From NCBI GenBank assembly GCA_949358305.1, contig OX442314.1:23808001-23872000 (forward strand): a stretch of 64,000 nt of DNA. Reading direction: 5' to 3'. Of the stretch, positions 4,200 to 64,000 are shown piece after piece. The translations under genes were made by a program, and so were the position numbers. The notes beneath the pieces are model-generated. The model did no database searches. It had not been told where the DNA came from and worked only from the letters and a program-made list of their open reading frames with translations. Source of the stretch: Strigamia acuminata. Its lineage: Eukaryota. Positions within the stretch are counted from its first letter, which is position 1. Each line of letters opens with the position of its first letter.

Positions 4200-4201
4200 C
4201 G

Positions 4202-7200: not shown

Positions 7201-7434
7201 TTGGGAGGAAAAAGACGATTCCCGACGCCCTTCGTCCCGAAAAAACCGGGATTCACTCCCACAGGGGATAAAAGTAACATCAAATGTTACAGCTGTGGAG
7301 AATACGGCCACTACTCAGATAAATGTGAGAAAACCGTCAAAGAAAAGGACATCATGCAAACCATGATGAAAATGATGATGGAGTTAAGAACTGATCTGGC
7401 AAAAAACTTCCAAGCGCAGGCGTCGCCGAAATAA
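4294..7434 (+). CDS. gag: Gag, 1046 aa (long coiled coil, capsid-like domain, CCHC knuckle)
   Basis: FDGSW..G..FLDEV, LRQAPGETLADY, CYSCGEYGHYSDKC; homologous to element 3 Gag. Confidence 0.92.
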   Translation: MSDKDEQSTSETEQRMPEKGKRTSDYHLRSDGPVPEMSAKAKARANKRRAKAQKEEQAASLAALDGPERERVPLNMQPFEDTDPEAIENREEIREISPGRVSILMTEETNEAPKITVTVGTNPSPPTAQTSVEQTPRKNDGGTPITPRVTASPAVVSFEVSHLIRLTRQAAQLKAMIDIPVGTSVWESITLLTDAICAAQAPTPVARPAAETPMPQVTPSDTGGFAPDPNRTLHESREKAREEARQEATSRQRRLSAERRELWKEEEEREQRERRTTERTEKLVQKMREEREAKIRKEWNATVEGRHREAQEYEDQFQALIAQRKTEKLQMLRKEAILQHQKWEEQHRERLREEEARKEKEQFLKEKEEWDRVRWTEEYKAKKQAIIDEQKRWEAENWEKETEKFQKEYAQDVSDRKKNEENLKRKPEPPSGSDTDTGEGATKPAKTAKRGKSQKRDESVPKTKDRHPSKRSETGAAIDALLEKKNANKNRERPESEENRWHSFYENNDGGEPPPSGGSKQKKAGGETPPRGPRFHPQGDPSEPSDSSDDDHPSRPSTGRSQEDSDGHRSNRPNASDRSSRSSNPRSEEGNFQDSSGRHYTMSELGRALLNSFRREGIDLGHPGDEHNRAGERVKRKYGVRNEPSSEATGNIRWQHYIQTRFDGSWKAGDRFLDEVMRIKKATKATVADMLTHGLVELTTGSAREWYQGLKNPTWDDFLVRFDLRYGETPDEISNKLRGLRQAPGETLADYDARAKLLFARAPYEINPAGFTMIFYGGLSAHSQRILLDMRAPRTGDYQDVSNYLLTNTLEIEQRYYATLPPEEADAHEKRLQTSAERHKTSEKLMRPSEYLSGIMSLTEASFGRMLTPKAGSILPANPIAAPKKAPAATAMQVTSTDSTQMEKVEETTPLATAKEEEPASSDEEALNEHLENLSTGCDDQGPYLHHAHRALAIAQFRAHVQATKARGALGGKRRFPTPFVPKKPGFTPTGDKSNIKCYSCGEYGHYSDKCEKTVKEKDIMQTMMKMMMELRTDLAKNFQAQASPK

Positions 7435-7451
7435 ATTCAGCTTCGTCTGCG
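7401..7451 (+). promoter_or_regulatory. Predicted -1 ribosomal frameshift signal (gag-pol)
   Basis: A AAA AAC in the gag frame, a 6-nt spacer, then stem GCGCAGGCG/CGTCTGCGC. The -1 frame stays open into pol. Confidence 0.8.
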
Positions 7452-11914: not shown

Positions 11915-12031
11915 ATGGCCGATCGACGCAACCCACGATTAGAGCCGAGCGCATCGTCGAGAGACGAGAGCGACGGCCTAATCGTAAATGCAGAAGAAGA
12001 TGAGAATTGGGACGAACAACCGCCGCTGCAG
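11915..12031 (+). CDS. Element 2 ORF3, predicted coding exon 1 (MADRRNPRLE...WDEQPPLQ, 39 aa)
   Basis: ATG in an AAATGG context; ends at CAG|GTAAAT donor in phase 0, matching the phase-0 acceptor at 12592. Element 3 has the same layout. Confidence 0.65.
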
Positions 12032-12592
12032 GTAAATTAGTGTGATTTCCCCAGAGAAATCACATAATTCTTTGAATCTGTTGCATCCAACCCAGATTGG
12101 AGCGTGACTTGTGACTGATATATTTCTTTCTGTTTTATTGTTGATTTAAGGCTGGCTAAAAACCCGAGAGTGGACCCAGATTCACCTCGGAGTCAAGGCC
12201 GCCAAAAAACTAGAACAAAGGAAGTGTTCGCGGAATGGCGTCGTGGCAAACCAAAACCAAAACTAAAGGTTTTCTTTCTTTTAAATTTAAACATCGTAAT
12301 AAATTAAAATACGATTAGAGTTAAAATAAAAAAGTTTAACGTAAGAAATTAAAATTTAACGATCGGTTTTGCCTGCGACCCCTTCCAAAAAAGCGGATCA
12401 CCTGAGTTCAAAAGTAGTGTTGGATCAGCGCTACGACGGCAGAGATCATCGCAGAACTGCGAAACAAGAAAATAAGACCGACGGCCGCAACAAAAGAAAG
12501 GAGTTGCTGCCACCGTCGATCTTGAGCATATTTCTGATCCCCATCGTTAACTGGGATTTATTATATTAATCTTGTGATCTAAAATTATTCAG

Positions 12593-15500
12593 GTCGACCC
12601 GCTAGAATCGTGGGACGCCCTGCCTCCGACGGCGTCAACCGCCAACAACATCTTTCGCGGAGCCCTGCCGATTTACCTGCGGCAGGCCTATCCTGCAGAG
12701 ACCAGCGCCTGGAAAATCCGATTGATGTATTCCAGGACCCTCGAGGAAAAATTCGAGCGATCAAAAACGCTGGTCGAGTGCATGACGAAGGAGATGAGGG
12801 AGCGAGTGGGGCCGCGGATCCCACCCGATGCGGATCCGCCGAGCCCCGTTTACTCCGGGTACCTGGAAGAGGCTTACCCAGGCACGGTGGCCGAGCTGCA
12901 CACCTCCCATAGGTGGAGCGAGGCCCCGACCTTGGCAGCCCGCCAGAGAATAGTGGACGACGAGATCAAACGCTTAAAGCGCACCGAGACTCACGGAGTA
13001 ACCCGAGTTCTCGAGAGAAACGGTTTCTCCCCCGAAGAAATCCGTAGATGGCTTCGCGACATCGAAGAAGATCATCTGACACCCAGATGGATACCGCCGG
13101 CGAATTTTACGGCCACGCAGTCTGAGATGTGGCAGTTATACCACGCTGGTATCCTGGGAAGTCGCCGCCATCACAGAAGATCGAAGCGTCCGGCGGAGTC
13201 CGCCCCACGCGGACCCGCACGAAGAAGACAGGCCGTCTCCCCAATAGAGGCCGGCCCGTCAACGAGCCGCGACTACCGCAGCCGCTCGAGCAGCTCCAGT
13301 TCCCGAACTCGAGTTGTCGTGCGCTCGGAGTGTCGCCGAGTAGTAACGCTCGAGCCTGCCTCGCCAGACGACGCGCGGGCTGAGCGAACAGTCGAATCTT
13401 CCGCCCACTGGGCTGCGAGGACCGAGACACACCAAGATCGAGGAAAGAAAAGATCCTCGTTGTTCATGGCGATTACCACACAGTCGTCAGATCAATCCTC
13501 GTCGCGACGAACCGTCTCATCACACCAGAGACCGAATTCTCCGACGGACGTCCCCCAGAGGACGGCCCAACGAAGATCCGTCGCAGCCAGCACCCGGAGG
13601 AATCGAAAGCGCAAAGTACGTCAGAAGTTGCGAGCACAATCCCTGATAGCTAAGGGATTAGAGAAGGAGCGAGAGATGGCCGCCGCGAAACGGTCCGAAC
13701 CCCAGAGTCTCGGACCCACGGCTGGACCGTCCAGGCGCCAAGCAGAGATTGATTTGGGAGAGTTGACGGAAGAGCAAATGTCCCCAGATGAGTCGGACAA
13801 AGATGGGCCGGTTACAAAACAGGATCTGGCCGTAGCATTGAAGAACGCCTTCCGAGGATACGCGGCCAACCGGCCGTCGGGCTCAACACCGGCTGTGCCC
13901 ACCGCGCTTGTGCCCCCACAAGTGCAATCGCGATGGCCGCCACTCCTCGAGGGTACAAACCCAGCCGTGACCGCTTGGACCCCTCCCCGGATGATTCCGG
14001 TGGGGAATCCAGCTCCGAAGCGGGTCAGATACGATAATCTACCCGGGCTGGGCCGTCCACCGTCACCCCCAACGCCACGAGTGTGTCGACCTTATCGCAA
14101 CGCCGAATGGTACGCCCAGCGAGAGATGGACGCTCGATGCCGGCGTGAAGCGGCCTATCCCCCACTCAGCGAGCTACAAGAATATCTGGCCGAATACGAG
14201 AACCCCGCGATTGCCGAGTTGGCCATACGACAGGCCGACGCCGCCCAAACCCACCACATCAATTGGGCGATCGAACAGATGCGGACGCTGTCACAACAAT
14301 TCAGTGGCAATCCGGACCGCGCTCACCCCTGCCATCGGAGCAGTTTGAATTTGGCAGTGACGAACGTCATGGCCCAGCTGCTATCCCTGGGCGTCTTCTT
14401 GGACAGTCGGCAAGCTATGGCGGCCTGGACAATCGTCGACCGTGAGGGAGTTCACCTTCCTCGGGCGTTGTACCAGGTATGGGCCGGATGGACTCCTGAG
14501 CCCGCCTCGCTGCGCTTCGACCTGGCCAGAAATACGGAAAACCCAGGCCTACAGTTTTCAAAGATGCGTTCGTTAGCATTCCGCTACCGGAACCCCGGAG
14601 TCCACCCTTCCTTGTTGCGAACAATTCGGGAGGTTCCGGAGATACCGGGAACGGCGGCGAGCCTTCCACAGGCCATCGAGACCGCCCCCCCAGAGGCGGC
14701 GGTCCAACCATACATACCGACCCCAAAGCCGGTATTCCCGAAGGAGAAGCGACACGCGAATCGACCCATATTGATTCCGAAGCGTTCCAAGCGAGGACCC
14801 CGAACTCCTCCGCTGCCCTCTCCTTCACCACCAGCGGCAGGGCTGGCCGCTCTCTCTGCAGAGCCGGCTACGCCACCGTTGGAGAGCCCAATGGAGATTC
14901 CGCTCCCACCATCGCCTCCGCCGCCCCCAGCAGCGCAGCTTTATTTGAGGCTGGGAGTGGAATACCCCTTCCTTCAGATGTCGGAGTTCACGCGACAACG
15001 CATCATTGACTCCGACGATCACGGCGAATCAATCCTCAAATGGCTAAACAGAGAAGCCCGATCCACCATGGACGCCGTCTTCCATCGCCGTATCCTACGG
15101 GCCCACAGGAAACCCGGATCGAGCGCCGAGTCGCGAAGGATCCGACTCGTCCCCGATCGATTCCCCGCGTCTACCCGGATTTGGATCCATGAGCGTACGG
15201 CAGAGAATAACATCGGGTACCCGTACCCGTACCCGTAACCGTACCCGCCCGTACCCGTAGGGTACGGGCGGGTACGGTTATAGATCTCCCGCGACTCCCG
15301 GTTACGGGTCGGGTACGGGTACGTTTTTTGTTCGTTTTTTGTACGTTTTTTGTCCTGCTGGCCACGTAATCGCGGGTACGGGTAGGGTAGGGTAGGGGGA
15401 TTCCGGGATAGCCCGGGTACGGGCGGGTACGGGTACGAAATTGTTTCGGTGACGGGTAACGGGCGGGTAACGGGTAAACTTTTTTCGCCAATGTTATTCT

Positions 15501-15737: not shown

Positions 15738-16557
15738 TGTGGTGACCCAGTTGGATAAGTGTCCCCCCAGGGCGGATACTTGTCCTATGAGTCACTATGA
15801 TTAAAGAGTCGTTCCCCCCCGAGTTGGCTCCACCTCCCCATGGCAGGTGTGTGCCCCGAGGGGGAGGAAGCGGCTGGTGGTCAGCCCCCATTGGTTGATC
15901 GCCGGCCCTTCACCCCACTGCATAAAAGGCTGTGTTTCCCGCCTAAAGACAGAACTTACACAAACGACACCAAGAACACAGCAACTACCTCACCGTCAGG
16001 CCAACTTCAACTACAAGTTAGGATTGATCGAGGATCGCTGAGTAAAGTGCAAACTGTAACTCTCACGAAGTCACTTGCGAGCTATTCCTGCGAAAGCACG
16101 AGAATAGCCCTTGTGAAATCACCCAGAATAATCGCCCAGACGATTATTCGCCGAAGTAAGTGTCCGAGTGCTTTGTAGGGAACCCCAAAGTTCCTAGACG
16201 AGGCCTCTGCGACGCTAAACAAACCCTAGACAACAGGCACGGATAGAAGACTCGAAAGAGCATTCCACCGCGTCCGTGAAGACGAATCCGTGACGAATTA
16301 ACGACAACTCGAGACGCCGCCTTTGTTCCGCCGACCACGCGGAATCGACGACGCCATCTTGAGAAATCCTTTGTTCGACGCTGACCACGTCGACTCTAGA
16401 ATTATTACTGAGTGTATTTTAAAGGCATAAAGCCTGGTGAATAAATTACCTGTTTATTTACATACATTTGGTATTCATTTGGGTATTTACATAATTGATC
16501 ACAGGTAAAGTATTACACGTTAGCGCTATTTAAACCTATACCAAGTAGGACGCGACA
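15738..16557 (+). repeat. 3' LTR of element 2
   Basis: Copy of 3380-4199, followed by TSD AACC. Confidence 0.97.
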
Positions 16558-31235: not shown

Positions 31236-31285
31236 CGACCCCCCTTTTGGGTTGTCGTCCTCGACAACAATACAAAATTACAAAA

Positions 31286-35806: not shown

Positions 35807-36107
35807 TACGTCCGCCACGTGTTTCGCAAAATTTTCAACAACAATCACCGATCTCGTCAACCACCGACAATGATCACCAACAACTTTTCAACTGCTTATA
35901 TACGTCTCCGTCTCCAAATCGAACGTTATCTGGACGTTTTCCACGTGTAACGCGCGTCGTCTCCTTCGTCTCCGTCCCCAAATTTCTCCGCAACTCGATT
36001 TTCGAAAATGTTAAGCCCACGCGCTCTTCATCCAAATCGCCGTCATCAATTTCCAACTGTTTCAACTATTTCACCTTCCCCAAAGTCTTTTTATGTCGAC
36101 TGCGCCA

Positions 36108-36241
36108 TGTGAGAATGATTTAGACATACGGTTAAGTTGAATGTCTGAACTAGACTGATTTATTATCTCAAAGCATAGAACAAATCCAAATTACATAGAA
36201 CAAGTCATCGAAAAGACCCCCAGGGGGCGCTATCGCTTACA
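36108..36241 (-). repeat. 5' LTR of element 4
   Basis: Adjacent to the PBS; TSD AAGAC at 36242-36246. Confidence 0.96.
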
Positions 36242-45900: not shown

Positions 45901-46019
45901 ACTGCAAGTACGAAATTAAACATAAAACAAATTTTTCTTCAAAAAACAATTTTATATTTTTTTATTTTTTATTTTGCAAGACAATTGTCAAAACGATATA
46001 ATTGAACAGAATTGTTCTT

Positions 46020-49346: not shown

Positions 49347-49352
49347 ATTCTT

Positions 49353-50450: not shown

Positions 50451-51906
50451 TGCAGTGGCCATGATGGTCACTGAGTGATTCGAAAAGAACAATTTAATAT
50501 TCTTATCATAATTTGTGTGCTTTATCGTGTTTTTTCCAAGTGTTTTAATATTTATTGGACAGAGAAATTGAGAATTCCAGAGCAATCATCACGTTTTTCC
50601 AAATATCATTATGCTGTATCTAAAAGAATAAATATTTTGATGTTTTATTTCTTATATAAAAAAGACTAATTTCTTTATTCTCTCAATCATACTTGATATT
50701 GCACCACATTGAGCAAGGAGAACAGGTGATGCAAAATCACCACAGCAACCAGCCCTGGATGGTGCACAGGATGTGCATCCTGCTCCCGGATAAAGGGTTA
50801 TGGCGCAATCTAAATTCGTATAAGGAGTTGTGGTGCAATTCACCTAGGAGTTCTGGGGAAAATTGCTCTCACAACTTCAGTTCAAGTCTCCTTTTCACCA
50901 GTACCAGTCATGTCATATTTTGCTCCAGTGTTTCTACAAACCCAGTAATAATATGATTGTGATTATCCTGCACCAAAGGAATTTGGATTCACCTTGCTGA
51001 TAGGGTTAAGCAGCTAGGTGTCATCTTGCCAACAGGGATTCTTTGGCTAGATTTTGTCTTGCTATTTGGGATTCAATAGCTAGATTTATCTTGCTCAAAC
51101 AGCCAGTTTGAGTTGAGATTTCAGAGTTTTGAAGCCAAATTGTGTGTAACAATTTGGGAGTTTATCTTTGCACTCAGAGCAAGGGAGTCTTAGCCTTGGA
51201 CTTTAACAAGCGGGCGCCACCTTGAGCGTTTAATCAAGAAGGAATCAAGTACTTGTACGAGATTCACTGTGTGAGACGCACGAGAGACGGACGACATCGC
51301 CGCGACTTACGGAACCACCACGGGACCCGAATTGCGAGACGCCGCCCGAGACGAACCACGACGACCAGCCGCCAAGGAATTTCTCAAGCCCGAGAAATTA
51401 CCCGAACCACTGACCGTCGAGGAGGAGTTTGCAGAAGCGTGAGTAGTGTTGAACAGTGCGAAAGCACGTCCTTTCCGGATTTCCCGGCACTATTCTCGCC
51501 TTTGCGAGTGTTATTTGTCGCCATTCGTAATAATAAGGAGAAGCGCGACGTCGACAAGCCAGCCACGCCGTGGGAGAAGATTGTTTTCCTCATTTTCCAT
51601 TATTACTAACATTTCGATTATTTTAAGTAGTATTGTTTAAATTACGCATTATTTGTATAATTAACCCAATTTTCCCCGAATAAATAACAAATATTCATTT
51701 TAAGCAACCACAGTGTATTTTATTAATAGGTTAAATATTTTAGTCAGTTTAGTCTTGAGAAGGAATATTAATTTAAACATTAATATTTCTCCTCATTAGT
51801 GAAATTATTTGTTTTAGAATATTAGAAGAATATTCAGGTTTTGATAAGACCCGTCGTGGCAACCCGTTGTATCTCATTGGCAAAGGTGACATTTGAGATC
51901 ACAACA
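50451..51906 (+). repeat. 5' LTR of element 3
   Basis: TGCAGTGG...ACAACA. The first 760 bp match 63241-64000; the right end is inferred from the PBS position. Confidence 0.88.
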
Positions 51907-51908
51907 CT

Positions 51909-51921
51909 TGGGGGCCTGGCC
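51909..51921 (+). promoter_or_regulatory. Primer-binding site, tRNA-Pro-like
   Basis: TGGGGGCCTGGCC, 2 nt after CA; same spacing as element 2. Confidence 0.7.
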
Positions 51922-52030
51922 TTTAGATTTGAACCTTAAAAAGTTTTGAATTAACTGAGGGACCTCCATCTTTTATTATTTTAGCATTAAAAGTCTGTTT
52001 CTTTCTTCTCTGTCATTTTCTTGACTAACA

Positions 52031-55000
52031 ATGCCACCGAAGAAAGACAGAACACGTCAACGAGGTGCGAGTACTTCACGTCGTGCAAAGACGCGAGGAA
52101 GAGCGACAGGTGCGGACGGCGCTGAATGTTTTTTCATGCCCTCTCGTACACCGTCCACTGAGTCTGAACATGGACAAGCAGAGGGCGGACAACAGTCGCC
52201 AAATTTACTGACGCAAGATATGCAGACGGGAGAAACTCAAAAAGATGTTGCGCTGACACCTACCAAAACCACTGAATTTCGGCAAGAAGATTACGTGACT
52301 CCAACACATTCACGAGCGAGTAGTGTGAAGTCCAAAGACAGTAAGCCGTATGATAAATGGTCAAAAGAAGAGTTATTAGCGATGGTCAGAGCAACGAGAA
52401 AACGGGTGAAGGAACTGGAAAGTCGGCGCGCGACGCCATCGTCCAGTAGAAGCATTTCCACGTCGGGGACAACGTCACCAACACGTGAACTATTACGTGA
52501 AGTTAGATTTCGGATGCAGCAATTGTTTAATGAGACACAAGATGCAGTTGACGATACAGCACGAAGATATGAAGAAGGCGTACCGCTAACACAAGCAGGT
52601 GCAACTGCGGCAGTAGAAGATGCTGAGAGGAGAACAAAAGAATTTCACGGATTACGGTTGCAAGAAGATCAGCTGATAAAGCAGTATCACATGGAAGATC
52701 GTCATGCGAGAAAACATCGTAAAGATCGTGAAAACCTCAAATTGGCATTAGATAAGCAGCTAAAAGACGTGCAGGACCAGATGGCCGTCGAAAAGGCGCG
52801 ACTTGCGGATGCACAAAACGAAATCACGAAACAAATGGATATCGGGAAAACTCGACTTGCGGATGTGCAAAGAGAAATGACGAGACAAGTGCTATTAGAT
52901 AAAAAAAGGATGGAAGATGATGATTTGCGCCATAAGGAAGCTATGCGAAAAATGGACGAAAACCTTCTGGAAGAAAGAAAGAAAATAGAAGTTGAACGAG
53001 TACGTGTAGAAACAGAACGTAAGCGTGTCCAAGCAGAAAGGGCAAAGTTGGAAACAGCCGTACAAGATGAGAATGATTATTTGCGAAGAGCGACCCTCGA
53101 AGCTCAAGAAGAAGCAGAGAGAGCAAAGCAAGCTTTGTTAGAAATAAAGTATTTGGCGCAACTACAGTATTCTCAGTCGCAACAAGAAGTTCCTACAGAA
53201 TTTGTGATTGAAGACTCGTCAGCTCCAATCAAAAGGGGGAAAGTGAGTGGAATAATTCCACCAGACGACAAAAAATCAACAGCTTCACCCACGAGAAATA
53301 AAAATTTGCTGAATGTTATTGATCAACGAAATCAGAAGCATAACACACCAGGAAAAGATAAATGCAATCCGGAAAATCCGTCAAGACAAGGGGACTGGTC
53401 TGAAACAGAAGGAACGGATTACAAAAGCGATTATCCAAAAAACCTGAGCAAAGAATTATTAAAAGATCAACTTGATGCGAACAGAGAAGGGAAAATGAAC
53501 CTAGATAACACAAGTGGAGGACGAGGAATTACTTTCACTGCACAGTCAGCTGAGAATCGTGAAAAAAGGAAGTATTCACCCGAGCATAGAGCTGGAAGAG
53601 GTGCACAATTTCACGAAGAAAGTGATTATTCGCCAGAGCGCGAAAGAGAACCTCGTAAACATATTAGGACGGGTCAACCTTTTGAAAGAGGCAGAAATGA
53701 AGAAAATTCTCGTCAAAATTACGACCAAAGTCGAAGCGAGTGGGGTTCTTACAGAGAAAACGAACAGAACTACCAAGGACGAAACTCACGTCAACAGCAT
53801 GATCAAGGTCGGGACAGAGGTCCACCACCGGGAGGTTCTTATCGTGATCGACAGGACAGGAATCACTCGAGCCACGATCGAAGCAGGTCAAGAGACAGAA
53901 GTAGAGGCTCAAGGGAGAGTCACAGTCGGTCAAGATCGAGACAAGGCGGATCAATGCATGACGACGATCAAGATGCACAGTTGGGGAGAGAATGGCTAGA
54001 AAAATTTATTTCAGACAAGATTCAAGAAGGGTTGACAGGGAAGTCTGCAAGACAAAAGGCAATGGAAGCAGCTTTGCAGAAGAAAATTAGAAAATATTGC
54101 GCAGTCAATTGGGTACATCGCATAGTGCGAGCAAGTGAAATTAAGTGGGATAGAATAAATCCAGATTTGTTTGACGGCAGTTGGTTGGCAGGAACACAAT
54201 TTCTGGATGAAATTCTAAGATTGGCAAGGAGCCATGGAGCCGATCCACAAGATGCATTGGAGAGAATAATTCCAAAGGCATTAACGGGAGGAGCAGCAGA
54301 TTGGTTTTGCGAAAGTAGATTTACAAATTGGGATAAATTTGCAGCAGGATTCATCAAAGAATATGGCGAGTCTGGAGAGACTTTAATGAAATATTGGGAC
54401 GATTTGCACCAAATGCCAGGTGAAGACATTAGAGAATTCTTAAAGAGAACTGAGGAATTAGTGAAACGTCTGCCCGATCATCAGAGTGATTCGACAATAG
54501 ACAGACAGTTTCGAAAAGGCCTAACAGAATATTCTAAAAGTGTTCTTTTAACCACACACGTACCAGTGGAAAGTTCATTCAAGAAGTTAGCAGAATTCCT
54601 TAGAGATAATCAAGAATTAATTGATGAAACATTTTTAAAATATCTGCCATTTATGGAACAAGAAGCTCGAAAAGACTTCTTACAACAGCAACTGGAATTC
54701 ACCAGAGCAAACTCCAAAATGATGCAACCTCGTTCGAGATTTCAAGCCAACCAAAAAGAAACTAAAGCGATAACGGCAAGAGGTTCGGGAGCTTCACCAC
54801 ACCCACCACCCAGAGTTCCGATGACACCATCAGCAAAATGGGTGCATGACGTGGACGACGACGGTGAACCAACTGGACACACTTTATATCAGATGAACTT
54901 GCCAACGCGACAGGATGTGGACGACTTGATAGAAGCAGCTCAAGCATTCTTTACAAAAAGTAATGTAACGGCGCCGAAGTATCAACCGCCCACTCAACCA

Positions 55001-55330
55001 AAATCTGTACCAGACACGATAACGCCAACAAAGAAAGCCGCTAGGGTGGACATAAGAAAGACACCGCAAGAAATGGTGACGTCAATGCCGCCTGAGCCAG
55101 CTAAACCCACCGAGGAAGATAAGCAACCGGTCAAAGTTGACACTGGAAAGGCGGAAGAGATGCCTGAAGCAACTCCACGTGTCAAATTAACGCCCGAAAC
55201 TTCACCTTGCCACAACTGTGGTCAAATAGGACATTGGGCGAGACAATGCACGCAGCCGCCCAAGCCAGTATCCAAAGAGGAGATGCGCAAGGCAATTCGT
55301 ACATTGACGGAATGCCTAAAAAACATGTAA
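52031..55330 (+). CDS. gag: Gag, 1099 aa (coiled coil, RS-rich tract, capsid-like domain, CCHC knuckle)
   Basis: FDGSWLAGTQFLDEI, LHQMPGEDIREF, CHNCGQIGHWARQC. Confidence 0.92.
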   Translation: MPPKKDRTRQRGASTSRRAKTRGRATGADGAECFFMPSRTPSTESEHGQAEGGQQSPNLLTQDMQTGETQKDVALTPTKTTEFRQEDYVTPTHSRASSVKSKDSKPYDKWSKEELLAMVRATRKRVKELESRRATPSSSRSISTSGTTSPTRELLREVRFRMQQLFNETQDAVDDTARRYEEGVPLTQAGATAAVEDAERRTKEFHGLRLQEDQLIKQYHMEDRHARKHRKDRENLKLALDKQLKDVQDQMAVEKARLADAQNEITKQMDIGKTRLADVQREMTRQVLLDKKRMEDDDLRHKEAMRKMDENLLEERKKIEVERVRVETERKRVQAERAKLETAVQDENDYLRRATLEAQEEAERAKQALLEIKYLAQLQYSQSQQEVPTEFVIEDSSAPIKRGKVSGIIPPDDKKSTASPTRNKNLLNVIDQRNQKHNTPGKDKCNPENPSRQGDWSETEGTDYKSDYPKNLSKELLKDQLDANREGKMNLDNTSGGRGITFTAQSAENREKRKYSPEHRAGRGAQFHEESDYSPEREREPRKHIRTGQPFERGRNEENSRQNYDQSRSEWGSYRENEQNYQGRNSRQQHDQGRDRGPPPGGSYRDRQDRNHSSHDRSRSRDRSRGSRESHSRSRSRQGGSMHDDDQDAQLGREWLEKFISDKIQEGLTGKSARQKAMEAALQKKIRKYCAVNWVHRIVRASEIKWDRINPDLFDGSWLAGTQFLDEILRLARSHGADPQDALERIIPKALTGGAADWFCESRFTNWDKFAAGFIKEYGESGETLMKYWDDLHQMPGEDIREFLKRTEELVKRLPDHQSDSTIDRQFRKGLTEYSKSVLLTTHVPVESSFKKLAEFLRDNQELIDETFLKYLPFMEQEARKDFLQQQLEFTRANSKMMQPRSRFQANQKETKAITARGSGASPHPPPRVPMTPSAKWVHDVDDDGEPTGHTLYQMNLPTRQDVDDLIEAAQAFFTKSNVTAPKYQPPTQPKSVPDTITPTKKAARVDIRKTPQEMVTSMPPEPAKPTEEDKQPVKVDTGKAEEMPEATPRVKLTPETSPCHNCGQIGHWARQCTQPPKPVSKEEMRKAIRTLTECLKNM

Positions 55331-55363
55331 GCGCGATTCCTGCACGGCCAGAGGAACTCGCGC
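55318..55363 (+). promoter_or_regulatory. Predicted -1 ribosomal frameshift signal (gag-pol)
   Basis: A AAA AAC in the gag frame, a 6-nt spacer, then stem GCGCGATTCCT/AGGAACTCGCGC; pol is in the -1 frame. Confidence 0.8.
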
Positions 55364-58300
55364 CAGAAAAAATTTCGGAACTGGCCATAACAGAGGAATG
55401 TCGGATGGAAGAGATATTTGTCGCCCCATTTAGCGTAGCCCCACTGAAAATGGTTTTGACCCCTCCAGAAGCCATTGGAACTATGAGAAAGAAGGGTGAG
55501 ATAATTTATACAATGAAGAAAGGTCAAATTGTCGGAATACAGTTTCCACCGACAGAATTATCACTTTTGACGAAAATTAAAGAGGCAATAAACGCTGGTG
55601 AATCATTTTTTAAAGAGAAAGTTTACGAAGTGTTAAAAGAAGTAAAACTAGTAGAAGAAAATGAAGCTTTAGTGTTTTGGTCGAAAGTGAAGGAAAATTT
55701 TGAAAATGAGCCAACTATCGAAGCTCACGTGATGGAAGCACCATGCACGTGGACAGATGTAGACGCATGTATTGAAGAAATGACCAAACTTCCGTCAATA
55801 CCACAAAGAGTAAGAGTTTTTAAGGTCATAATACCTGAAGACGAAATTTTGGAAAATATGACGACAATGGAGATTGTGACGGAACACGGGAGTGTAATGA
55901 CCAATTTGGATTCAGGTGCGAATCGGAGCTGCATTTCATTGCCTGTAGTGCGAGCATTGGGAATGGAGAAGTTTGTTACTAAAGTAAGACCCAACATGGC
56001 AATAAACACCGCAGATAAGAAGGTGCAACCCCTGGGTTCAATACGAATACCTTTTCGGTGGTCGCATGGGGCAATGATTCATTCATTTCTGGTGCTGCCC
56101 CATGAAGTAAAATTTGTATTAATGGGCAACGACATCATGAAACAAATGGGAGTACAACCGAACCCCGTCACAGGAAAATGGAACTTTGTCACCAATTTTA
56201 AAATTCCATGCGAATATGTTCCACAAGAAGTGCTAGATCGACTAGAAAAGAAAAAAGAACATGCTGAATCAACTTATCGCACATTCAAGAAAGACTCGAA
56301 TTTTGCAGCATTTCAGGCTCGACTTAAAGTAGGAAATGGAGTGTCGAATTTAGTCGAAGAAGCGAAGCTTCAATTGAATGAAGCCGCGCAATTAGAAACA
56401 GTGCTAAAAAGATATGAGAAAATTCTGACAAAAACGCCCGGCAGAACGCACATTCTGCAGCATTCCATCGAATTGGACACAGAAAGACCAATTAGAGTGC
56501 CCTTTCGAAGCTGGAATCCGCAGAAGAGGGAAATTTTGCGACAAATGTGTCAAGAATTAAAAGACAAGGGCTACGTGTCGGAGGCAGAGGGAGATTATGC
56601 AGCAAGGATTGTGCTAGTGTCGAAAGCAGGGTCAGACCCAAGACTGTGTATCGATTACAGGCCAATTAATGAGCACACCCGCTATGACCCACCACAAATG
56701 CCGACGATAACAGAAATACTACGAGAACTTGGCGAATTCCAATGGGTTTCCACAATCGATTTGACCAAAGGCTACTGGCAAATCGAACTACGGCCAGAGG
56801 ATCGGCCAAAGACAGCCTTCTGGAGTCCCATTGGGAGATTGATGTTTAATGTAATGCCATTTGGATTGGTAAATGCGCCTACTACATTTCAACGCTTAAT
56901 TGAGAAAGTTTTAGGAGATGCATTCCATAGCTACGCTTGGGCTTACTTAGATGACATCGTCATAGTTTCACAGACATACGAGCAGCACATGAAACATCTA
57001 AATTCAGTGCTAAAAAAGTTAGAAAAGGCAAACTTGCATGTGAACCCAGAGAAATCAAAGTTTTGTAGAAAGCAACTAAAATTTCTTGGATTTAGTTTGG
57101 GAGTGGAAGGAGTGGCAGCCGACCCAAAGAAAGTCAGTGCCATTGCGGATTTTCCACCACCAACAAATCTGACCGAACTACAACGCTTCTTGGGAATGGT
57201 CAATTTCTTCCACCGGCTGTTGAAGAACTTGGCCACCATTGCAGAGCCACTGCGACCATTACTCAAGAAAGGAGTAAATTTTGAGTGGAAGGAAGAACAT
57301 CAAACTGCATTCGACCAAATTAAACTTCTGCTAACCGACTCAAAAACAATGATGTTACCCGACCTTAACAAGCCGCTGATTGTCCACACGGATGCGAGCA
57401 AAAAGGGGTTAGGAGCTGCATTAATGCAAGAGAAAGAAATTGACGGCCAAATGATTGAGGTTCCATGTGTGTACATCAGCAGGAGTCTGCAGCAAGCAGA
57501 AAATAACTATAGTGCAACCGACTTAGAGTGTTTGGCGGTCATCTGGGCTCTACGCAAATTTAGAGCATATTTGGAGTTTACTTCATTTACAGTCCAGACG
57601 GACCACCAGGCCCTTCGATGGTTAATGCGACTTGAGGAACCTGCAGGAAGACTCGCAAGATGGCAGATGGAACTCATGTCATATAATTTCCAAATACAAT
57701 ACATAAAAGGACCAGCCAATGTTCTTGCAGACGCCATGTCAAGAGCACCAGTGGACTTGCCCGAAAATGATGAAGATAGTGGTGAAGCTGACGGTGACAC
57801 TTCCTACTGTCCGACAGGGTCAAGCCACTGGAAATTCAAGAACTGGAATCAGCTGCCAGTTCAAGAAGAAAAGCCGTCTAGTGACGACCAATTTGTCGCA
57901 CATTGGTGCAATGTTTACAATGTAGGAGAAGCTCACAGTGAAGTGGAGAAAGAAGAGGAAGAATGGCAATATCTTCCGAGTACCAAGAATGAGATGATCA
58001 GTGCATTTATTGCCAAGGTGACGGATCAGATGGATTGTCATCCACCAACAAGGCAGGACTTTATTGATCACCAAATCGCTGACAAACAATGTCAACGAAT
58101 ACGTCATTACTTGGAAACTCAGCAGTTCCCACCACACATCACCACGAGACTCCAGCGTAGAAAGTTTTGTAAAAGGACATCGCAACATATTCTAGAAGAA
58201 GGTTTATTGATGAGATATCATCCCACGATTACGGACGAATTTGATGATAGCAACAGGGCATTGAAGGTGGTAGTACCAAAGTCGCTGAAACATCGAGTGT

Positions 58301-60093
58301 TGTGGTTAATGCACGGCCACCCTTTGGCGAGTCACTGCGGAATTTCAAGAACGATGTATCGAATAAAGCAGATTTACACTTGGGAGAGCATGAAAGCAGA
58401 TGTGTCACGATTCATCCGACACTGCACAAGATGTCAGGCGTGCAAGCCGAGAAAAAAGACAACAACTGAGTCAGCGAACATTGGACCCTACGCTCCTTTC
58501 GAATGCCTAAGTGCAGATTTAACAGGACCTAAACCTCGGACCAAAGAAGGCAATAACTACATCTTCGTCGTAATCGACATTGCGACAAGATGGCCGATAT
58601 TATTTCCAATGGACGGACCGACAGCTCAGCTAGTGGCAGACTGCATTTACGACGTATCAATGGATTGGGGCTTTGCACAAAAAATTATTTCGGACAATGG
58701 CCCGCAATTTAAAGCAGCATTTTACAAAGAATTTTGCAAAAAGTACAAAATGACTCCGAAATTCACGTCACCTTACCACCCACAAGCCAACCCGGTGGAG
58801 CGCCTTAATAGAGATATAAAATATATCATTGCAATTTTTACATCAATCCACAACCGGTGGGATGAATTTTTAAGAGAAATTGCCTTCAGTATTAGAACCA
58901 CGGACACAAGAGGTCGTGGCTATTCTCCCGCCTACTTGAATTGCGCAAGAGAGTTTCGCATCCCGTGGGACCCGAGAATACTTGATGGAATGCTAAAAAT
59001 TGATCCAGATCGTCCGGAAATTTATGTGCAAAAATTAGAGAGAATAATTAGCGACACCTATCAACATATGCAGGCGCATATCACGGATTTACGAGAGCGT
59101 GTCGAAGGTCACAAGTTGGACAGCAAGTTTGAAAACTTCCGAGTAAACGACCTAGTATGGCGAGAGAATCATGCACTATCAAGAGCAGCGAGAGGATTTT
59201 CCGCCAGTATTGCGGACAAAAGGACGGGACCTTACGTGATCACACAAGTGCATCAAGGAGGCGCCGTGAAATTAAGACGCTTAAAGGACAATAAAGTTTT
59301 CACCTCAATTCACACATCGGAATTAACGCCCTATTTCCCGGAATTCAACCAAGAAATTTGGGTGGAGGGCCAAACTGAAAGTAATCCCGACGCAGAAGTT
59401 ATCAACACATTGTTAGACGACATTCCACCAACAAAAGAAATCGTGCAAGAAAACACAGGAATCTCAGAGGAAACTTCACCGCTAGAAAATGAAATACGAG
59501 TGCAAAAGGACACTGAAATTCAAGAAAATGCACAAATTTCAGAAGAAAATGCGCAAACAGAGTTAGAAAGTTCGGAAAACATAAATAAAGGCGATGAAGT
59601 CGAGACGCAGTTGCAAGTGCCACCGGTAGATGTCGCTCAAAATCAAGCGAAGCAACCGGAGTCGAGAAATGAGGAGAATGACAAAGTCGAAACGCAACTA
59701 CAGATGTTGCCGGAAGATGTCGCCCAAGTACAGGCACATTCTCAAAAACAAAAAGACGTCGAAATTCAAAACGACGAAGTCAGAATAGGAAGTGGGCAAG
59801 GAGAAATACAAGCACAAGAGGATGCCGAAATTCAAAACGACGAAAGCTCACAAAACACGGGAAATGTAGCGGAAAAGGAGAATTCTATTTTATTTCCACT
59901 TAAAGAGTTTTTTGGAGGTGAAGAGCAATTAAAATCACTCCAAAAAAGGGGGGAAGAGTGGAGTGGAAAAGAAAAACGCAAAAACAAATACAAAAATTTA
60001 TTAAAAACTTCGCCAAGAGAGAAGAAAACTGCCTCGAAATATACATTAAGAGACAGAGCGAAGTTGAAAGCCCCGAGCAAGCTGAGGGACTAA
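55324..60093 (+). CDS. pol: Pol (protease, RT, RNase H, integrase, long acidic tail)
   Basis: NLDSGA, LCIDYR, YLDD, TDASK, TDHQAL, HHCC, D-D-E, RTGPY. Confidence 0.96.
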   Translation, partial: HVSAIPARPEELAPEKISELAITEECRMEEIFVAPFSVAPLKMVLTPPEAIGTMRKKGEIIYTMKKGQIVGIQFPPTELSLLTKIKEAINAGESFFKEKVYEVLKEVKLVEENEALVFWSKVKENFENEPTIEAHVMEAPCTWTDVDACIEEMTKLPSIPQRVRVFKVIIPEDEILENMTTMEIVTEHGSVMTNLDSGANRSCISLPVVRALGMEKFVTKVRPNMAINTADKKVQPLGSIRIPFRWSHGAMIHSFLVLPHEVKFVLMGNDIMKQMGVQPNPVTGKWNFVTNFKIPCEYVPQEVLDRLEKKKEHAESTYRTFKKDSNFAAFQARLKVGNGVSNLVEEAKLQLNEAAQLETVLKRYEKILTKTPGRTHILQHSIELDTERPIRVPFRSWNPQKREILRQMCQELKDKGYVSEAEGDYAARIVLVSKAGSDPRLCIDYRPINEHTRYDPPQMPTITEILRELGEFQWVSTIDLTKGYWQIELRPEDRPKTAFWSPIGRLMFNVMPFGLVNAPTTFQRLIEKVLGDAFHSYAWAYLDDIVIVSQTYEQHMKHLNSVLKKLEKANLHVNPEKSKFCRKQLKFLGFSLGVEGVAADPKKVSAIADFPPPTNLTELQRFLGMVNFFHRLLKNLATIAEPLRPLLKKGVNFEWKEEHQTAFDQIKLLLTDSKTMMLPDLNKPLIVHTDASKKGLGAALMQEKEIDGQMIEVPCVYISRSLQQAENNYSATDLECLAVIWALRKFRAYLEFTSFTVQTDHQALRWLMRLEEPAGRLARWQMELMSYNFQIQYIKGPANVLADAMSRAPVDLPENDEDSGEADGDTSYCPTGSSHWKFKNWNQLPVQEEKPSSDDQFVAHWCNVYNVGEAHSEVEKEEEEWQYLPSTKNEMISAFIAKVTDQMDCHPPTRQDFIDHQIADKQCQRIRHYLETQQFPPHITTRLQRRKFCKRTSQHILEEGLLMRYHPTITDEFDDSNRALKVVVPKSLKHRVLWLMHGHPLASHCGISRTMYRIKQIYTWESMKADVSRFIRHCTRCQACKPRKKTTTESANIGPYAPFECLSADLTGPKPRTKEGNNYIFVVIDIATRWPILFPMDGPTAQLVADCIYDVSMDWGFAQKIISDNGPQFKAAFYKEFCKKYKMTPKFTSPYHPQANPVERLNRDIKYIIAIFTSIHNRWDEFLREIAFSIRTTDTRGRGYSPAYLNCAREFRIPWDPRILDGMLKIDPDRPEIYVQKLERIISDTYQHMQAHITDLRERVEGHKLDSKFENFRVNDLVWRENHALSRAARGFSASIADKRTGPYVITQVHQGGAVKLRRLKDNKVFTSIHTSELTPYFPEFNQEIWVEGQTESNPDAEVINTLLDDIPPTKEIVQENTGISEETSPLENEIRVQKDTEIQENAQISEENAQTELESSENINKGDEVETQLQVPPVDVAQNQAKQPESRNEENDKVETQLQMLPEDVAQVQAHSQKQKDVEIQNDEVRIGSGQGEIQAQEDAEIQNDESSQNTGNVAEKENSILFPLKEFFGGEEQLKSLQKRGEEWSGKEKRKNKYKNLLKTSPREKKTASKYTLRDRAKLKAPSKLRD

Positions 60094-60353
60094 TGACGTC
60101 AGTAGGGATCCAGGAAGTGGATGACGTCGCGAGCTCGAAGATGATTGGAGGTTCAGAGTTCACATGTGAGTTCGAAGACGACGAAGCGCACGCAAAGTCG
60201 GAAAATTGGATAAGCAATAGTTTCGATATTAAGAGAAAGGAGATATCACAATTGGTGAGTGAAATCGATTCAAAACAGAAGGAAAATTCACCAAGATTAA
60301 CGCAATCAAACTTTCGGCAACTTTAGATCATCGATCGGCTACAAAAAACAAGG

Positions 60354-60422
60354 ATGGCCGGACGAAAAAGATCACATGAGAAGTACGAGGACAGCGAACT
60401 TGCAGCAATGTCGCCCGAAGCA
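60354..60422 (+). CDS. Element 3 ORF3, predicted coding exon 1 (MAGRKRSHEK...MSPEA, 23 aa)
   Basis: AGGATGG start context; GCA|GTAAGG phase-0 donor compatible with the acceptor at 60869. Confidence 0.68.
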
Positions 60423-60869
60423 GTAAGGAATATAAAAAACTTGTGATCGGGGAAAAGAAAATATTATTAAAATGTGGCGACACCGTTTCTAAACCGAGTG
60501 AATCGTGGAAAATTTAACGAAAGCAAATTCGATAAAAAAGAAAGAAAAACTCGTAAGGAGGCCGGGAAAAGATTAAGTTTAGTAACTTCAACATAAAAGA
60601 AGCGAATCAAACAAATATTTAAGTCAGCAAAGCGAGAATATTAAACGGGTTTATGCAAAACAGAGATTCCGGAAAATGTTCAAAGCCGCCTCGTGATTTA
60701 AAGCGTCGCGAGCGCCATCTAGTGTTGAAATGGATAAACTCGGGCGATAGAACGGCGTTGTTGGCGCCATCTAGTATCCAAATAGACAAACTCGAATAGA
60801 AAACGATGTCGCGCGCAACCATTTAAAGGAAATAAAAGGCAAAATATTGAAAGTAAAATCTAATTGCAG

Positions 60870-63143
60870 GCGAAAATTTTGTCAACATCATGGGATGCGC
60901 TGCCAAACAGTGTTGTCACCAAACGAAGTATTTTTCGGGGCCGGCTGCCAAGGAAATACAAGAAAGTCTGCCAGGAGAAGGATTACACAGCATATCGAGC
61001 GAGGAGAATATTTACATCGGCGACCAACAAAAGATTCGGGACCAAAAGGAGGTTGGCTCAATGCACAAATGGAGAATTGAGAGAGGAACTGCGAGTCATC
61101 GCTTGGGCAGATGACCCGCCAGGACCATTTGGGTCGAAGATGCTGCAGGATGCATTCCCTCTAACAGAAGAAGAGTTGGAGGATTTAGAAATATTCCTCC
61201 GTCCGGAAACTGACAAGAGAGAATTCCAGGAGAAAATTATGGCAAAGCTCAGGACCAACATGCACCAAGTTGCAGAAGAGTACCTCCAGGAGGAGCAAGA
61301 ATATGAGCAAACAGGCGGGAAATTAGAAGACGGGACGTATCGATTACCACCCTACTACAGGCAAACACAGTATAAGCTGCATCAGCTCAAAATGGTTGGA
61401 GTGCTAGACAGAGACTACATTCCTGTGCCGATACCGCCAGAATTTCTGCAGCAAGCGGAACAGCAAAACACCGAGCATTGGCAGGGGAGCAGCGGCACCT
61501 ATCACGAGCGCCCACAGGAGTCCACATCCAGAGACGTTGAGTGGAAAGTATTGTCGCAGTACAGAGTGGATCGTAAAGTCTCTCCACTTTCATTGGTGCG
61601 GGCCAGTCAAGAGGAAGAGTTCCTTTCCGTGGACGTCAATGAAGACATTGACATGAGGTCAACCGCGAGCAGACGGCCATCGGGAGAGTCGCGAGCAAAG
61701 AGTGGAGAACCAGAGACAGTGCGGAGCGTCCCATCGCCGATAATATGGAGTGCATCGCCGCCACCGCCGCCGCGTTCAGGGATTCTCGAACCCAAAGTGG
61801 AAGCAAACATGTTGCACCTAAAACGAAAAGATGAGTTTACCAAGTTGGAAGCCAAAGAGGAAGTGCGAGTAAACAACAAGCATCCACACACAGAGCCCGT
61901 GGTAGGGGGAGTTCAGAGGATGGACCACTCGATCCCCATGCCGGATACGGCAGTCATGAACTACTCCAGCAACATGGCAATGAGGCCAGTGAAGGGCTAT
62001 GACAAACACTACTACGACCTATGGGACTGCTGTCTTCGTTTCCCAGCGTCCATATTGGAACAGTTTAAGGAAAGGATGGATCCTTATCAGCAAGCGCAAC
62101 TGAAAGAGGCGCAGGCCGATTTAATTCGACGGGCAAAGGAATTTGTTGAGTGGCCTTTAAACGAGCAAACCCAAAAGCGATTGCAGAAATTCCAAAAACT
62201 AACAGTTCCGGCCCAGCAGAGACTTCTGTTCCCCGGGGTATTTACAACAGATGAGGACGCCTTCACAGCCGCGAGCCTCCTTTGGGGCACACACTTGGGC
62301 ATGACCGAGGAGAAGTTGGAGAATTGGCTCTCCGTGCTGTACGATCCGGTTCTGCTGCGAAGTGATCTTATCTTGAGAGCCTTGGAGAATGGGGAAACCG
62401 TGGATCAGTGCTTTGTCAGGCTGCGACTCGAGTGGGATCTACGCCGAGAAGAAATGGAGCTAAGGAGGGACTCCGAGACTTTTGGGGGGCGTCCAATGCC
62501 AAATGTTCAGCCAGCAGGGTCCGAAACAAGATGGCGACCGGTGAGAACGTCAAGTTTGGCCTCCTCCACCTCCACAAGGTTGGAAACCTCATTCGCATCA
62601 TGTTCAAGTTATGAGCAGGGGTATGGATCAGCCGGTGCGGGGAATCATGTGGTGCCTCATCTGTCGAGGTTGGAGCTTAGCCACCAAAGCGGGGAGACCA
62701 CAACCTCAAGTCAGGATCCCACACGAGAGTGTGCCGAGTCAGCAGAGATTAAGCCCCGACAGAAAAGCGATAACGACAACTACGGGAAGATCCGCCGTCA
62801 CTATCCTCGGCTGCAATTTGGGCGAGGGACACGCACGCTTCTCATTTTCAACCCGAAGCTGTGCAAGGAAGCCTTTGCCTGGCTGGAGCGAGCGTTGAGA
62901 GAGCCCGGAAACCCGACCCAACGGCAAAGAGTGGTATTTGCGCACCGCCCGCCGAAAAGCCGTAGGGAGTTGTTTGAAATGGATTACATTAACCTAATCG
63001 ATAAGATCGCGCACGTCCAAGGCGTTTGGATGCACGTTAACACGGGAGTACAGTCGGGACCCACAGTGGGTTTGCCGAAATTTTCGGTGTCGGAAGAAGA
63101 ACGGCCACCACTGCCGCCATTCCCCAGGGTAAAGGCAGTTTAG
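60870..63143 (+). CDS. Element 3 ORF3 main exon: intact non-Env accessory protein of unknown function (about 780 aa with exon 1)
   Basis: CTAATTGCAG acceptor, then AKILSTSWDALP...; three blocks homologous to element 2 ORF3; no hydrophobic signal or TM stretch. Confidence 0.88.
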   Translation, partial: AKILSTSWDALPNSVVTKRSIFRGRLPRKYKKVCQEKDYTAYRARRIFTSATNKRFGTKRRLAQCTNGELREELRVIAWADDPPGPFGSKMLQDAFPLTEEELEDLEIFLRPETDKREFQEKIMAKLRTNMHQVAEEYLQEEQEYEQTGGKLEDGTYRLPPYYRQTQYKLHQLKMVGVLDRDYIPVPIPPEFLQQAEQQNTEHWQGSSGTYHERPQESTSRDVEWKVLSQYRVDRKVSPLSLVRASQEEEFLSVDVNEDIDMRSTASRRPSGESRAKSGEPETVRSVPSPIIWSASPPPPPRSGILEPKVEANMLHLKRKDEFTKLEAKEEVRVNNKHPHTEPVVGGVQRMDHSIPMPDTAVMNYSSNMAMRPVKGYDKHYYDLWDCCLRFPASILEQFKERMDPYQQAQLKEAQADLIRRAKEFVEWPLNEQTQKRLQKFQKLTVPAQQRLLFPGVFTTDEDAFTAASLLWGTHLGMTEEKLENWLSVLYDPVLLRSDLILRALENGETVDQCFVRLRLEWDLRREEMELRRDSETFGGRPMPNVQPAGSETRWRPVRTSSLASSTSTRLETSFASCSSYEQGYGSAGAGNHVVPHLSRLELSHQSGETTTSSQDPTRECAESAEIKPRQKSDNDNYGKIRRHYPRLQFGRGTRTLLIFNPKLCKEAFAWLERALREPGNPTQRQRVVFAHRPPKSRRELFEMDYINLIDKIAHVQGVWMHVNTGVQSGPTVGLPKFSVSEEERPPLPPFPRVKAV

Positions 63144-63240
63144 TGAGAGCAGAAATGCCACTGCTACCCTTAGTCCGGAGGGCTAAGCGGTTTGTTGAAG
63201 GGAAAATTTGGATGGCGCATCAATGCAAAAAGAGGGGAAG

Positions 63241-64000
63241 TGCAGTGGCCATGATGGTCACTGAGTGATTCGAAAAGAACAATTTAATATTCTTATCATA
63301 ATTTGTGTGCTTTATCGTGTTTTTTCCAAGTGTTTTAATATTTATTGGACAGAGAAATTGAGAATTCCAGAGCAATCATCACGTTTTTCCAAATATCATT
63401 ATGCTGTATCTAAAAGAATAAATATTTTGATGTTTTATTTCTTATATAAAAAAGACTAATTTCTTTATTCTCTCAATCATACTTGATATTGCACCACATT
63501 GAGCAAGGAGAACAGGTGATGCAAAATCACCACAGCAACCAGCCCTGGATGGTGCACAGGATGTGCATCCTGCTCCCGGATAAAGGGTTATGGCGCAATC
63601 TAAATTCGTATAAGGAGTTGTGGTGCAATTCACCTAGGAGTTCTGGGGAAAATTGCTCTCACAACTTCAGTTCAAGTCTCCTTTTCACCAGTACCAGTCA
63701 TGTCATATTTTGCTCCAGTGTTTCTACAAACCCAGTAATAATATGATTGTGATTATCCTGCACCAAAGGAATTTGGATTCACCTTGCTGATAGGGTTAAG
63801 CAGCTAGGTGTCATCTTGCCAACAGGGATTCTTTGGCTAGATTTTGTCTTGCTATTTGGGATTCAATAGCTAGATTTATCTTGCTCAAACAGCCAGTTTG
63901 AGTTGAGATTTCAGAGTTTTGAAGCCAAATTGTGTGTAACAATTTGGGAGTTTATCTTTGCACTCAGAGCAAGGGAGTCTTAGCCTTGGACTTTAACAAG
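63241..64000 (+). repeat. 3' LTR of element 3 (partial)
   Basis: Matches 50451-51210; preceded by a PPT. Confidence 0.95.

Follow-up and report, generated by a model that had tools for sequence, protein, structure and literature searches.

The question raised by this locus was what kind of gene occupies the envelope slot of two gypsy long terminal repeat (LTR) retrotransposons of Strigamia acuminata. The window, that is, the whole 64,000-nt stretch analysed (assembly GCA_949358305.1, contig OX442314.1, positions 23,808,001 to 23,872,000; coordinates below count from its first base), contained two complete-looking elements of this type on the + strand, designated A and B. Each carried a third open reading frame (ORF3) located after pol and before the 3' LTR, which a first-pass annotation of the sequence had singled out as a spliced gene other than envelope (Env). 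Our analysis showed that A and B are recently inserted gypsy elements with a large conserved non-envelope gene in the envelope slot, and ORF3 is almost certainly a real non-Env accessory gene. Its product may act as an export factor for the unspliced genomic RNA of the element, a reading to which we assign a probability of roughly 0.35.

Sister elements sharing a third gene

Both carriers possessed the LTRs, primer-binding site (PBS), polypurine tract, gag and pol order (protease, reverse transcriptase, RNase H, integrase; PR-RT-RH-IN) of Ty3/gypsy elements, as judged from Pfam and sequence (Table 1). Element A started at 50451, and its 3' LTR, cut by the window end at 64000, was identical to the 5' LTR at all 760 of the 760 bases compared (63241-64000). 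Element B (3380-16557) had 820-nt LTRs with 0 mismatches and was flanked by a 4-bp target duplication, AACC. The first-pass annotation had described A and B as divergent elements, which did not hold in the sense of distant lineages. Their RT-RNase H regions were 63% identical to each other and at most 46% identical to any of 120 listed Pol matches (of 1080), and in a FastTree phylogeny of 113 rows (11 of 124 had been dropped for short cover) they stood alone together with a support of 100 on a stem of 0.66. Identity was 50% over pol as a whole and 27% over the shared part of Gag. These comparisons placed A and B as sister elements, and because they are sisters the simplest reading is that ORF3 is the inherited gene of a single lineage. 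Among the named Pol matches arthropods predominated, alongside a single fish and a single coral record, which makes an arthropod host plausible; the matches carry no clade names, and the A/B lineage is placed only relative to them. An ORF3 profile detected no further copies in the six frames of the window or in the 120 listed Pol matches.

Some features of gag and pol were also observed. An identical AAAAAAC heptamer in both gag-pol overlaps (55318-55324 in A; 7401-7407 in B) pointed to a -1 frameshift. The Gag proteins of A (52031-53900) and B (4294-6200) exceeded 1000 aa and had long, charged, low-complexity N-terminal halves that could not be aligned, leaving the capsid-like part as the sole aligning portion (27% over 269 aa). 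The PBS-like motif of A resembles a tRNA-Pro site.

Comparison of the two ORF3 proteins by BLASTP identified an N-terminal block with 34/98 identical residues (E=7e-13) and a C-terminal block with 23/89 (E=4e-5), the latter including conserved Arg, His, Trp, His and Thr residues. Residue shuffles reached the observed A-B local score in 0/500 cases for each of these blocks and in 5/500 for a central block. The three-block homology proposed at first pass therefore stood for both terminal blocks, and the central similarity was weak between A and B alone, yet strong between B and a third family member (E=1e-6). The N-terminal block (35% over 98 aa) was at least as conserved between A and B as the shared part of Gag. 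The third member, P0001, was the one match among 1.84 billion protein representatives in an exhaustive hidden Markov model (HMM) search (E=2e-9, 525 aa) whose query was a two-sequence profile of the A and B N-terminal blocks. P0001, recorded as a 'hypothetical protein', comes from a JGI contig of 2921 bases and was assigned to the family by its protein sequence; it matched the N-terminal block of A at E=1e-8 and of B at E=2e-13, and it lacked the C-terminal block. Relatives of ORF3 were not found among pattern matches in viral contigs (18 + 25) or metagenome contigs (140 + 24), nor by a word-based search with A among 7998 candidates of near length, and a three-member profile returned P0001 only, among 7990 candidates of near length. 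All homology and fold searches used the long exon of ORF3.

Taken from sequence features, the ORF3 protein is soluble, with three conserved blocks between variable linkers. The earlier description of these linkers as Pro/Ser/Arg-rich was accurate for B and suited A less well. Neither candidate first exon encoded a signal peptide (best 19-residue Kyte-Doolittle means -1.28 and -0.57, holding for these candidate exons). The best 19-residue mean of the long exon was 1.09 in A, 1.33 in P0001 and a borderline 1.65 in B, located inside the central block and not near the C terminus, and hydropathy indicated no C-terminal transmembrane (TM) anchor. Cysteines were few (8 in A, 5-7 in B and P0001), with one conserved across the three members, and each protein had 1 N-x-S/T sequon. 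These values agreed with the first-pass view of a protein with few Cys and no signal peptide or clear TM segment. Pfam searches with whole proteins and blocks gave DUF3410 as the best match (E=0.06) and no Env family at E<=1; the best PHROGs match (E=0.036) was not significant, and the best among PDB sequences had E=0.71. The Atlas returned nothing usable for A residues 1-200 or P0001, a blank that shows neither novelty nor absence. In these collections the family matched no recognised protein, and the first-pass annotation had not recognised it either. AlphaFold2 models from three-row alignments were mostly helical and of low confidence (pLDDT 55 for the B N-terminal block, 38 for the whole A long exon); with these low-confidence models Foldseek found nothing at E<=0.001 in PDB and viral structures, and the best VIA-align Z of 5.9 reflected generic helix pairs.

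An envelope identity was rejected, in line with the first-pass annotation, as ORF3 is soluble, poor in Cys, lacks a signal peptide, TM anchor and Cys pattern, and has no Env match in Pfam. In comparison to the errantivirus Env proteins, which are of F type or gB type (PMC13524379), ORF3 lacks the signal peptide, the TM anchor and the Cys-rich ectodomain, and shows no Env fold match (low-confidence models). A FAST-like fusogen was also rejected, because the long exons encode 757 and 881 aa in comparison to 60-210 aa, the proteins would start with MAGR or MADR and not MGxxxS/T, and no clear TM segment is present.

Purifying selection, supposed at first pass, was borne out by a dN/dS check across copies of element A, based on contigs from two public runs of one study (X1 and X2). 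The best-supported 40 of 83 differences over 60300-63160 comprised 4 in the intron and 36 in the long exon; one was dropped since it lay inside a compensating insertion-deletion pair. Synonymous differences accounted for 23/35 within ORF3, with 23 at third positions and 0 stops, against an expected synonymous fraction of 0.23-0.30, giving an omega of ~0.15-0.22 (P 6e-8 to 1e-5). Within the same set the synonymous share was 5/7 in the N-terminal block, 3/9 in the first linker, 11/15 in the central region (residues 371-530) and 4/4 in the remainder, and the sole uncompensated indel in the A long exon was one deletion in one shallow contig. The comparison values were 16/18 for pol and 8/16 for gag, among the best 40 of 1003 rows. 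As judged from these contigs, ORF3 is under purifying selection. That ORF3 is a passenger evolving neutrally, or what is left of an envelope gene after decay, would suit the lack of any named homolog in the searches made, but this explanation was rejected and retains very little probability: frames of 757 and 881 codons are open in elements that are 50% identical over pol, omega is low, and neither signal peptide nor TM anchor nor Cys pattern is found. When the X1/X2 contigs were aligned to A, LTR bins were ~3.5-5x deeper than internal bins, and contigs only 85-90% alike over gag and pol (50300-63240) indicated that diverged A subfamilies exist; few of these reached into ORF3, where two pieces per run were below 90%.

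Gene structure and candidate splice of ORF3

For both elements the first-pass annotation had placed exons, donors and acceptors correctly. In A, an ATG at 60354 opens a 23-codon exon (MAGR...), followed by GT at 60423 and AG at 60868-60869 ahead of a long frame at 60870-63143; in B, an ATG at 11915 opens a 39-codon exon (MADR...), with GT at 12032, AG at 12591-12592 and the frame at 12593-15238. Both proposed joins are in phase 0 and are followed by SWDALP 6 codons on in A and 5 in B, and several in-frame stops lie inside each proposed intron. The acceptor AG is, in each element, the only in-phase YAG ahead of the conserved Trp; an in-frame stop occurs 2 (A) and 5 (B) codons upstream of it, and GC content rises across it from ~0.3 to 0.45-0.65. 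The first in-frame Met (residue 91 in A, 45 in B) falls within the conserved block. As no Met precedes the conserved start of the long frame, there is a strong case that its start codon is supplied by an upstream exon via the phase-0 AG at 60869 (A) and 12592 (B). In P0001, ~50 contiguous residues run from the Met to the conserved Trp, which suggests that an N-terminal extension is normal for this family.

Donor sites were scored by a rough donor matrix, with 1000 dinucleotide shuffles as the chance control. The donor of B exon 1 was the best of 47 in the spacer, and an equal exon was found in 4/1000 shuffles when a Kozak ATG was demanded and in 24/1000 with any ATG. The donor proposed for A was the third of 35 and no better than chance (146/1000), and an alternative further upstream, in which an ATG at 60141 is paired with the stronger phase-0 donor at 60255, was equalled in 81/1000. 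This alternative exon could be joined directly to 60870. It could also be connected by a 72-nt GT-AG intron (60255-60326) with 60327-60422 and so, in frame, with the exon of the first-pass annotation; all these joins are in phase 0. Candidate exon 1 of both elements begins with ATGGCCG..CGA, a common start that favours the first-pass model but is short. Gag contains phase-0 donors as well (A 53243, B 4942), with support no better than that of the post-pol exon.

It is conceivable, although unlikely, that the frame is read without the proposed splice, whether it begins at an internal Met or at a non-AUG codon or is joined to another donor in the 5' leader or gag, as in CERV (see below), whose first exons are in frame with gag. 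This alternative concerns the start only. The phase-0 donors elsewhere (A 60255 and 53243; B 4942) and the weakness of the proposed A donor would suit it, whereas an internal Met would lose the best-conserved residues, no donor in the B spacer scores above that of exon 1, and the two candidate exons begin alike. A difference at 60866, found in the deeper contig of X1 and X2, removes a near-cognate start codon and keeps the AG, and so speaks against non-AUG initiation there. The X1 and X2 contigs retained the A intron and contained no joint, and their even cover over LTR, gag, pol and intron resembled genomic DNA, so that they bear neither way on splicing. Overall, ORF3 is probably made from spliced RNA. 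The intron is retained in both fresh insertions, whose reverse-transcribed RNA would therefore have been unspliced there.

The A and B spacers shared no DNA motif (best E=0.1), and no Rfam family was found in the window. Over 60139-60827, which covers spacer, exon 1 and most of the intron, 2/689 bases differed in the deepest X1 contig and most coding pieces differed more (e.g. 6/431); this may reflect constrained cis elements or a single haplotype only. The 3' untranslated region of B (15236-15470) contained many GGGTAC/GTACCC repeats, a short palindrome at the ORF3 stop that also encodes a YPYPYP tail.

Table 1. Coordinates of elements A and B and of the parts of ORF3 within the window.
Feature	Position	Strand	Basis or remark
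A 5' LTR	50451..51906	+	3' end approximate, from contig-depth step and PBS-like motif after it
A PBS-like motif	51909..51935	+	2 nt past LTR; 2-nt gap and TGGGGG start as in B
A gag (Retrotrans_gag, zinc knuckle)	52031..55330	+	Pfam
A pol (PR-RT-RH-IN)	55168..60093	+	overlaps gag, -1 frame; AAAAAAC slippery site at 55318
A alternative candidate exon 1	60141..60254	+	38 codons, donor TTG|GTGAGT at 60255; 81/1000 shuffles equal; inferred
A candidate exon 1 of first-pass annotation	60354..60422	+	23 codons, donor GCA|GTAAGG weak; 146/1000 shuffles equal; inferred
A proposed phase-0 GT-AG intron	60423..60869	+	447 nt, GC 0.37; retained in DNA-like X1 and X2 contigs
A ORF3 long exon	60870..63143	+	757 aa, GC 0.52, first in-frame Met residue 91
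A N-terminal block	60888..61406	+	residues 7-179, predicted helical; in A, B and P0001 (to ~residue 105-130)
A central block	62043..62390	+	residues 392-507, predicted helical; A-B 5/500 shuffles, B-P0001 E=1e-6
A C-terminal block	62781..63047	+	residues 638-726; in A and B, not in P0001
A polypurine tract	63225..63240	+	sequence
A 3' LTR, cut by window end	63241..64000	+	LTR comparison
B 5' LTR (TGT...ACA)	3380..4199	+	820 nt; target duplication AACC; PBS-like motif from 4202
B gag	4294..7434	+	Pfam; AAAAAAC slippery site at 7401
B pol	7395..11537	+	Pfam
B candidate exon 1	11915..12031	+	39 codons, donor CAG|GTAAAT; 4/1000 shuffles equal; inferred
B proposed phase-0 GT-AG intron	12032..12592	+	561 nt, GC 0.39
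B ORF3 long exon	12593..15238	+	881 aa, GC 0.60, first in-frame Met residue 45
B 3' LTR	15738..16557	+	0 mismatches to 5' LTR

Possible roles of the ORF3 protein

In the reading given above a probability of roughly 0.35, ORF3 would be a nuclear Rev/CERV-like factor that exports the unspliced genomic RNA of its element. An export role is favoured because CERV is the one gypsy protein of like layout that was found with a shown function. CERV is encoded by the gypsy element Cer1 of C. elegans and is described as spliced, non-Env, nuclear and required for genomic RNA export. It has 517 aa and five exons, of which three share the frame of gag; flexible linkers join its three domains, and it possesses a leucine zipper, a C4 Cys loop in the M domain and a G-protein-like domain (PMC10309623). 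Compared by description only, ORF3 differs in its length (~780-920 aa), in an upstream exon that apparently lies between pol and the ORF, in having one conserved Cys and no C4 loop, and in the lack of a GTPase-like match, the low-confidence models having returned generic helix matches. CERV was not among the matches of the word-based, N-block HMM or three-member profile searches.

The proposed mechanism starts from what was observed, an intact ORF3 after pol that is selected and does not encode a membrane glycoprotein, in two sister elements with identical LTRs. The long frame would, as the missing Met strongly suggests, gain its start codon by being joined, at the phase-0 AG, to the exon upstream. 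Packaging and reverse transcription would act on RNA that is unspliced at the intron, and the ORF3 mRNA would be spliced. By analogy with CERV, we would guess that the spliced ORF3 mRNA is exported by the normal route and that the protein then re-enters the nucleus, binds full-length RNA and promotes its export, thereby switching on Gag and Pol. A structured RNA was predicted just past the B pol stop (11500-11790; z -3.5, 0/200 shuffles, chosen after a scan), and basic clusters occur at residues 190-199 and 333-348 of B and 23-32 of A.

Several points weigh against an export role. The splice junction was deduced from genomic sequence, and the selection test drew on 40 differences, the best supported among 83, in two runs belonging to one study. 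Neither Pfam nor, with low-confidence models, Foldseek and VIA-align connected ORF3 to CERV, Rev or an RNA-binding fold by sequence or structure, and a Cys-rich finger of the CERV type is missing, one Cys being conserved in the three members. The basic and export-like motifs do not align across members and carry no chance control; K-K/R-x-K/R occurs three times in B, three times in P0001 and zero times in the A long exon. The structured RNA of B is not at the matching place in A (z -1.6). Envelope-bearing gypsy elements likewise splice a third gene, although it is through cis elements that their unspliced RNA is exported. The same strategy is described for Mason-Pfizer monkey virus, whose unspliced RNA is exported by cis elements (PMC10309623). 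Splicing thus does not require an export protein, because cis elements suffice in simple retroviruses and gypsy.

A bolder form of the export reading can be offered tentatively and has a slightly lower probability. In it, ORF3 would be a large Rev-like regulator of an uncharted animal gypsy lineage, unrelated to CERV, Rev or Rex; it would be made of three domains with novel folds, be controlled by the splicing of an intron behind pol, and represent an independent invention of the export switch of complex retroviruses. A different possibility, which we regard as unlikely, is that ORF3 is a nuclear anti-silencing factor or transactivator that acts on element DNA, chromatin or a piRNA/siRNA component and so keeps the LTR transcribed. 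VANC of the plant VANDAL transposons and Tas of foamy viruses are precedents for such anti-silencing and transactivation. The soluble, basic, multi-domain anatomy fits this role equally, as do quick-changing linkers around selected blocks and the fresh insertion of both A and B; no DNA-binding, chromatin-reader or dsRNA-binding domain was detected in Pfam or PDB-sequence searches, which speaks against it. The proposed A intron contains two copies of CGCCATCTAGT(G/A) (60713-60724 and 60765-60776), the only matches in the window against 0.36 expected, and these could be protein-binding sites; the motif, which resembles that of CTCF, is not in B, and 8/100 shuffles reach the pair.

Two further roles are improbable. 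ORF3 could be a captured enzyme or host domain that has diverged past detection, with the two conserved His of the C-terminal block as a candidate active site. The DEDDy exonuclease and GDSL esterase ORF3s of bdelloid rotifers are a precedent for such capture (PMC5408684), and the conserved Arg, His, Trp, His and Thr of that block would suit a catalytic centre. ORF3 is also 9-10 points GC-richer than pol in both elements, third positions included, and GC-richer and A-poorer than gag and pol; this composition fits separate handling of two messages but also a captured origin. Against capture stand the lack of any Pfam, PDB-sequence or Atlas match (GDSL/SGNH and DEDDy catalytic families were not found by Pfam with whole proteins or blocks), the absence of the C-terminal block from P0001, and blocks that are short and predicted with low confidence to be helical. 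A 2H-phosphoesterase was rejected because the His residues of the C-terminal block are not in H-x-T/S motifs. With similarly small probability, ORF3 could remain in the cytoplasm on the particle, where it would chaperone RNA, serve as a cofactor for packaging or trafficking, or aid soma-to-germline transfer as a non-membrane protein. It occupies the Env position, its basic stretches could bind RNA, and MDG1-group elements transfer through non-Env accessory ORFs (bioRxiv 10.1101/2025.03.14.642691), but the transfer factor sORF2 described there has ~70 aa with a TM helix and a myristoylation motif, and ORF3 has ~800-900 aa with neither feature seen.

Non-Env third genes are already a known kind, described in nematodes (PMC10309623), rotifers (PMC5408684) and plants (PMC7264820), and the A/B family was previously unnamed. 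ORF3 resembles the rotifer ORF3s as a family-specific non-Env third ORF of animal LTR retrotransposons, but those are recognisable enzymes with intact motifs (PMC5408684) and the A/B family matches no enzyme profile. The additional ORFs of plant LTR retrotransposons differ in their hosts, many are antisense or contain TM segments, and no sequence match to ORF3 was found (PMC7264820). The sORF1 and sORF2 of MDG1-group elements are likewise selected accessory ORFs of envelope-less insect gypsy elements, with sORF1 found in nuclei, but unlike ORF3 they have 70-110 aa, lie mostly upstream of gag and are unspliced, and sORF2 is a TM fusogen (bioRxiv 10.1101/2025.03.14.642691). PMC13524379 surveys Env-bearing elements, and the ORF3 family did not occur in the passages used. 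The literature searched, whose coverage stopped short of subscription journals and Repbase/GyDB entries, held no description of this family.

The function is known for few of the accessory proteins that animal LTR retrotransposons encode, and ORF3 adds a large selected family of three members with no named relative. A spliced non-Env third gene with a shown role in RNA export has already been described in CERV (PMC10309623). Should ORF3 export unspliced RNA, a Rev-like switch would have arisen independently once more, in addition to CERV; should it block silencing, it would represent counter-defence encoded by a retrotransposon in an animal. Pending such a role it joins the orphan third genes, a kind that is already known.

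Other features of the window

Additional mobile sequences were present around A and B. A partial gypsy element on the - strand (81-3165; 52% to P0042) lies directly left of B, and an intact-looking gypsy element at 31102-36241 (-) has identical 134-nt LTRs, a 1533-aa gag-pol frame, no third ORF and a long branch in the tree. A copia-type gag fragment was recognised by Pfam at 44590-46005, and small inverted-repeat elements at 38954-39077, 26626-27027 and 20447-20924 are probably non-autonomous DNA transposons.

The window also included gene-like sequences. Repeated units ~5 kb apart at 22000-47200 contain exons of amiloride-sensitive sodium channels (DEG/ENaC; Pfam ASC), a local family expansion. 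From this cluster, together with the leucine-rich-repeat ORF described next, the host can be judged to be an animal. An intronless SGT1-like ORF at 17284-18417 with TPR, CS and SGS domains and a tandem triplication of IATPSLI is possibly a retrocopy, and a single-exon leucine-rich-repeat ORF at 47925-49352 (-), with an N-terminal hydrophobic stretch, resembles a Toll-type ectodomain.

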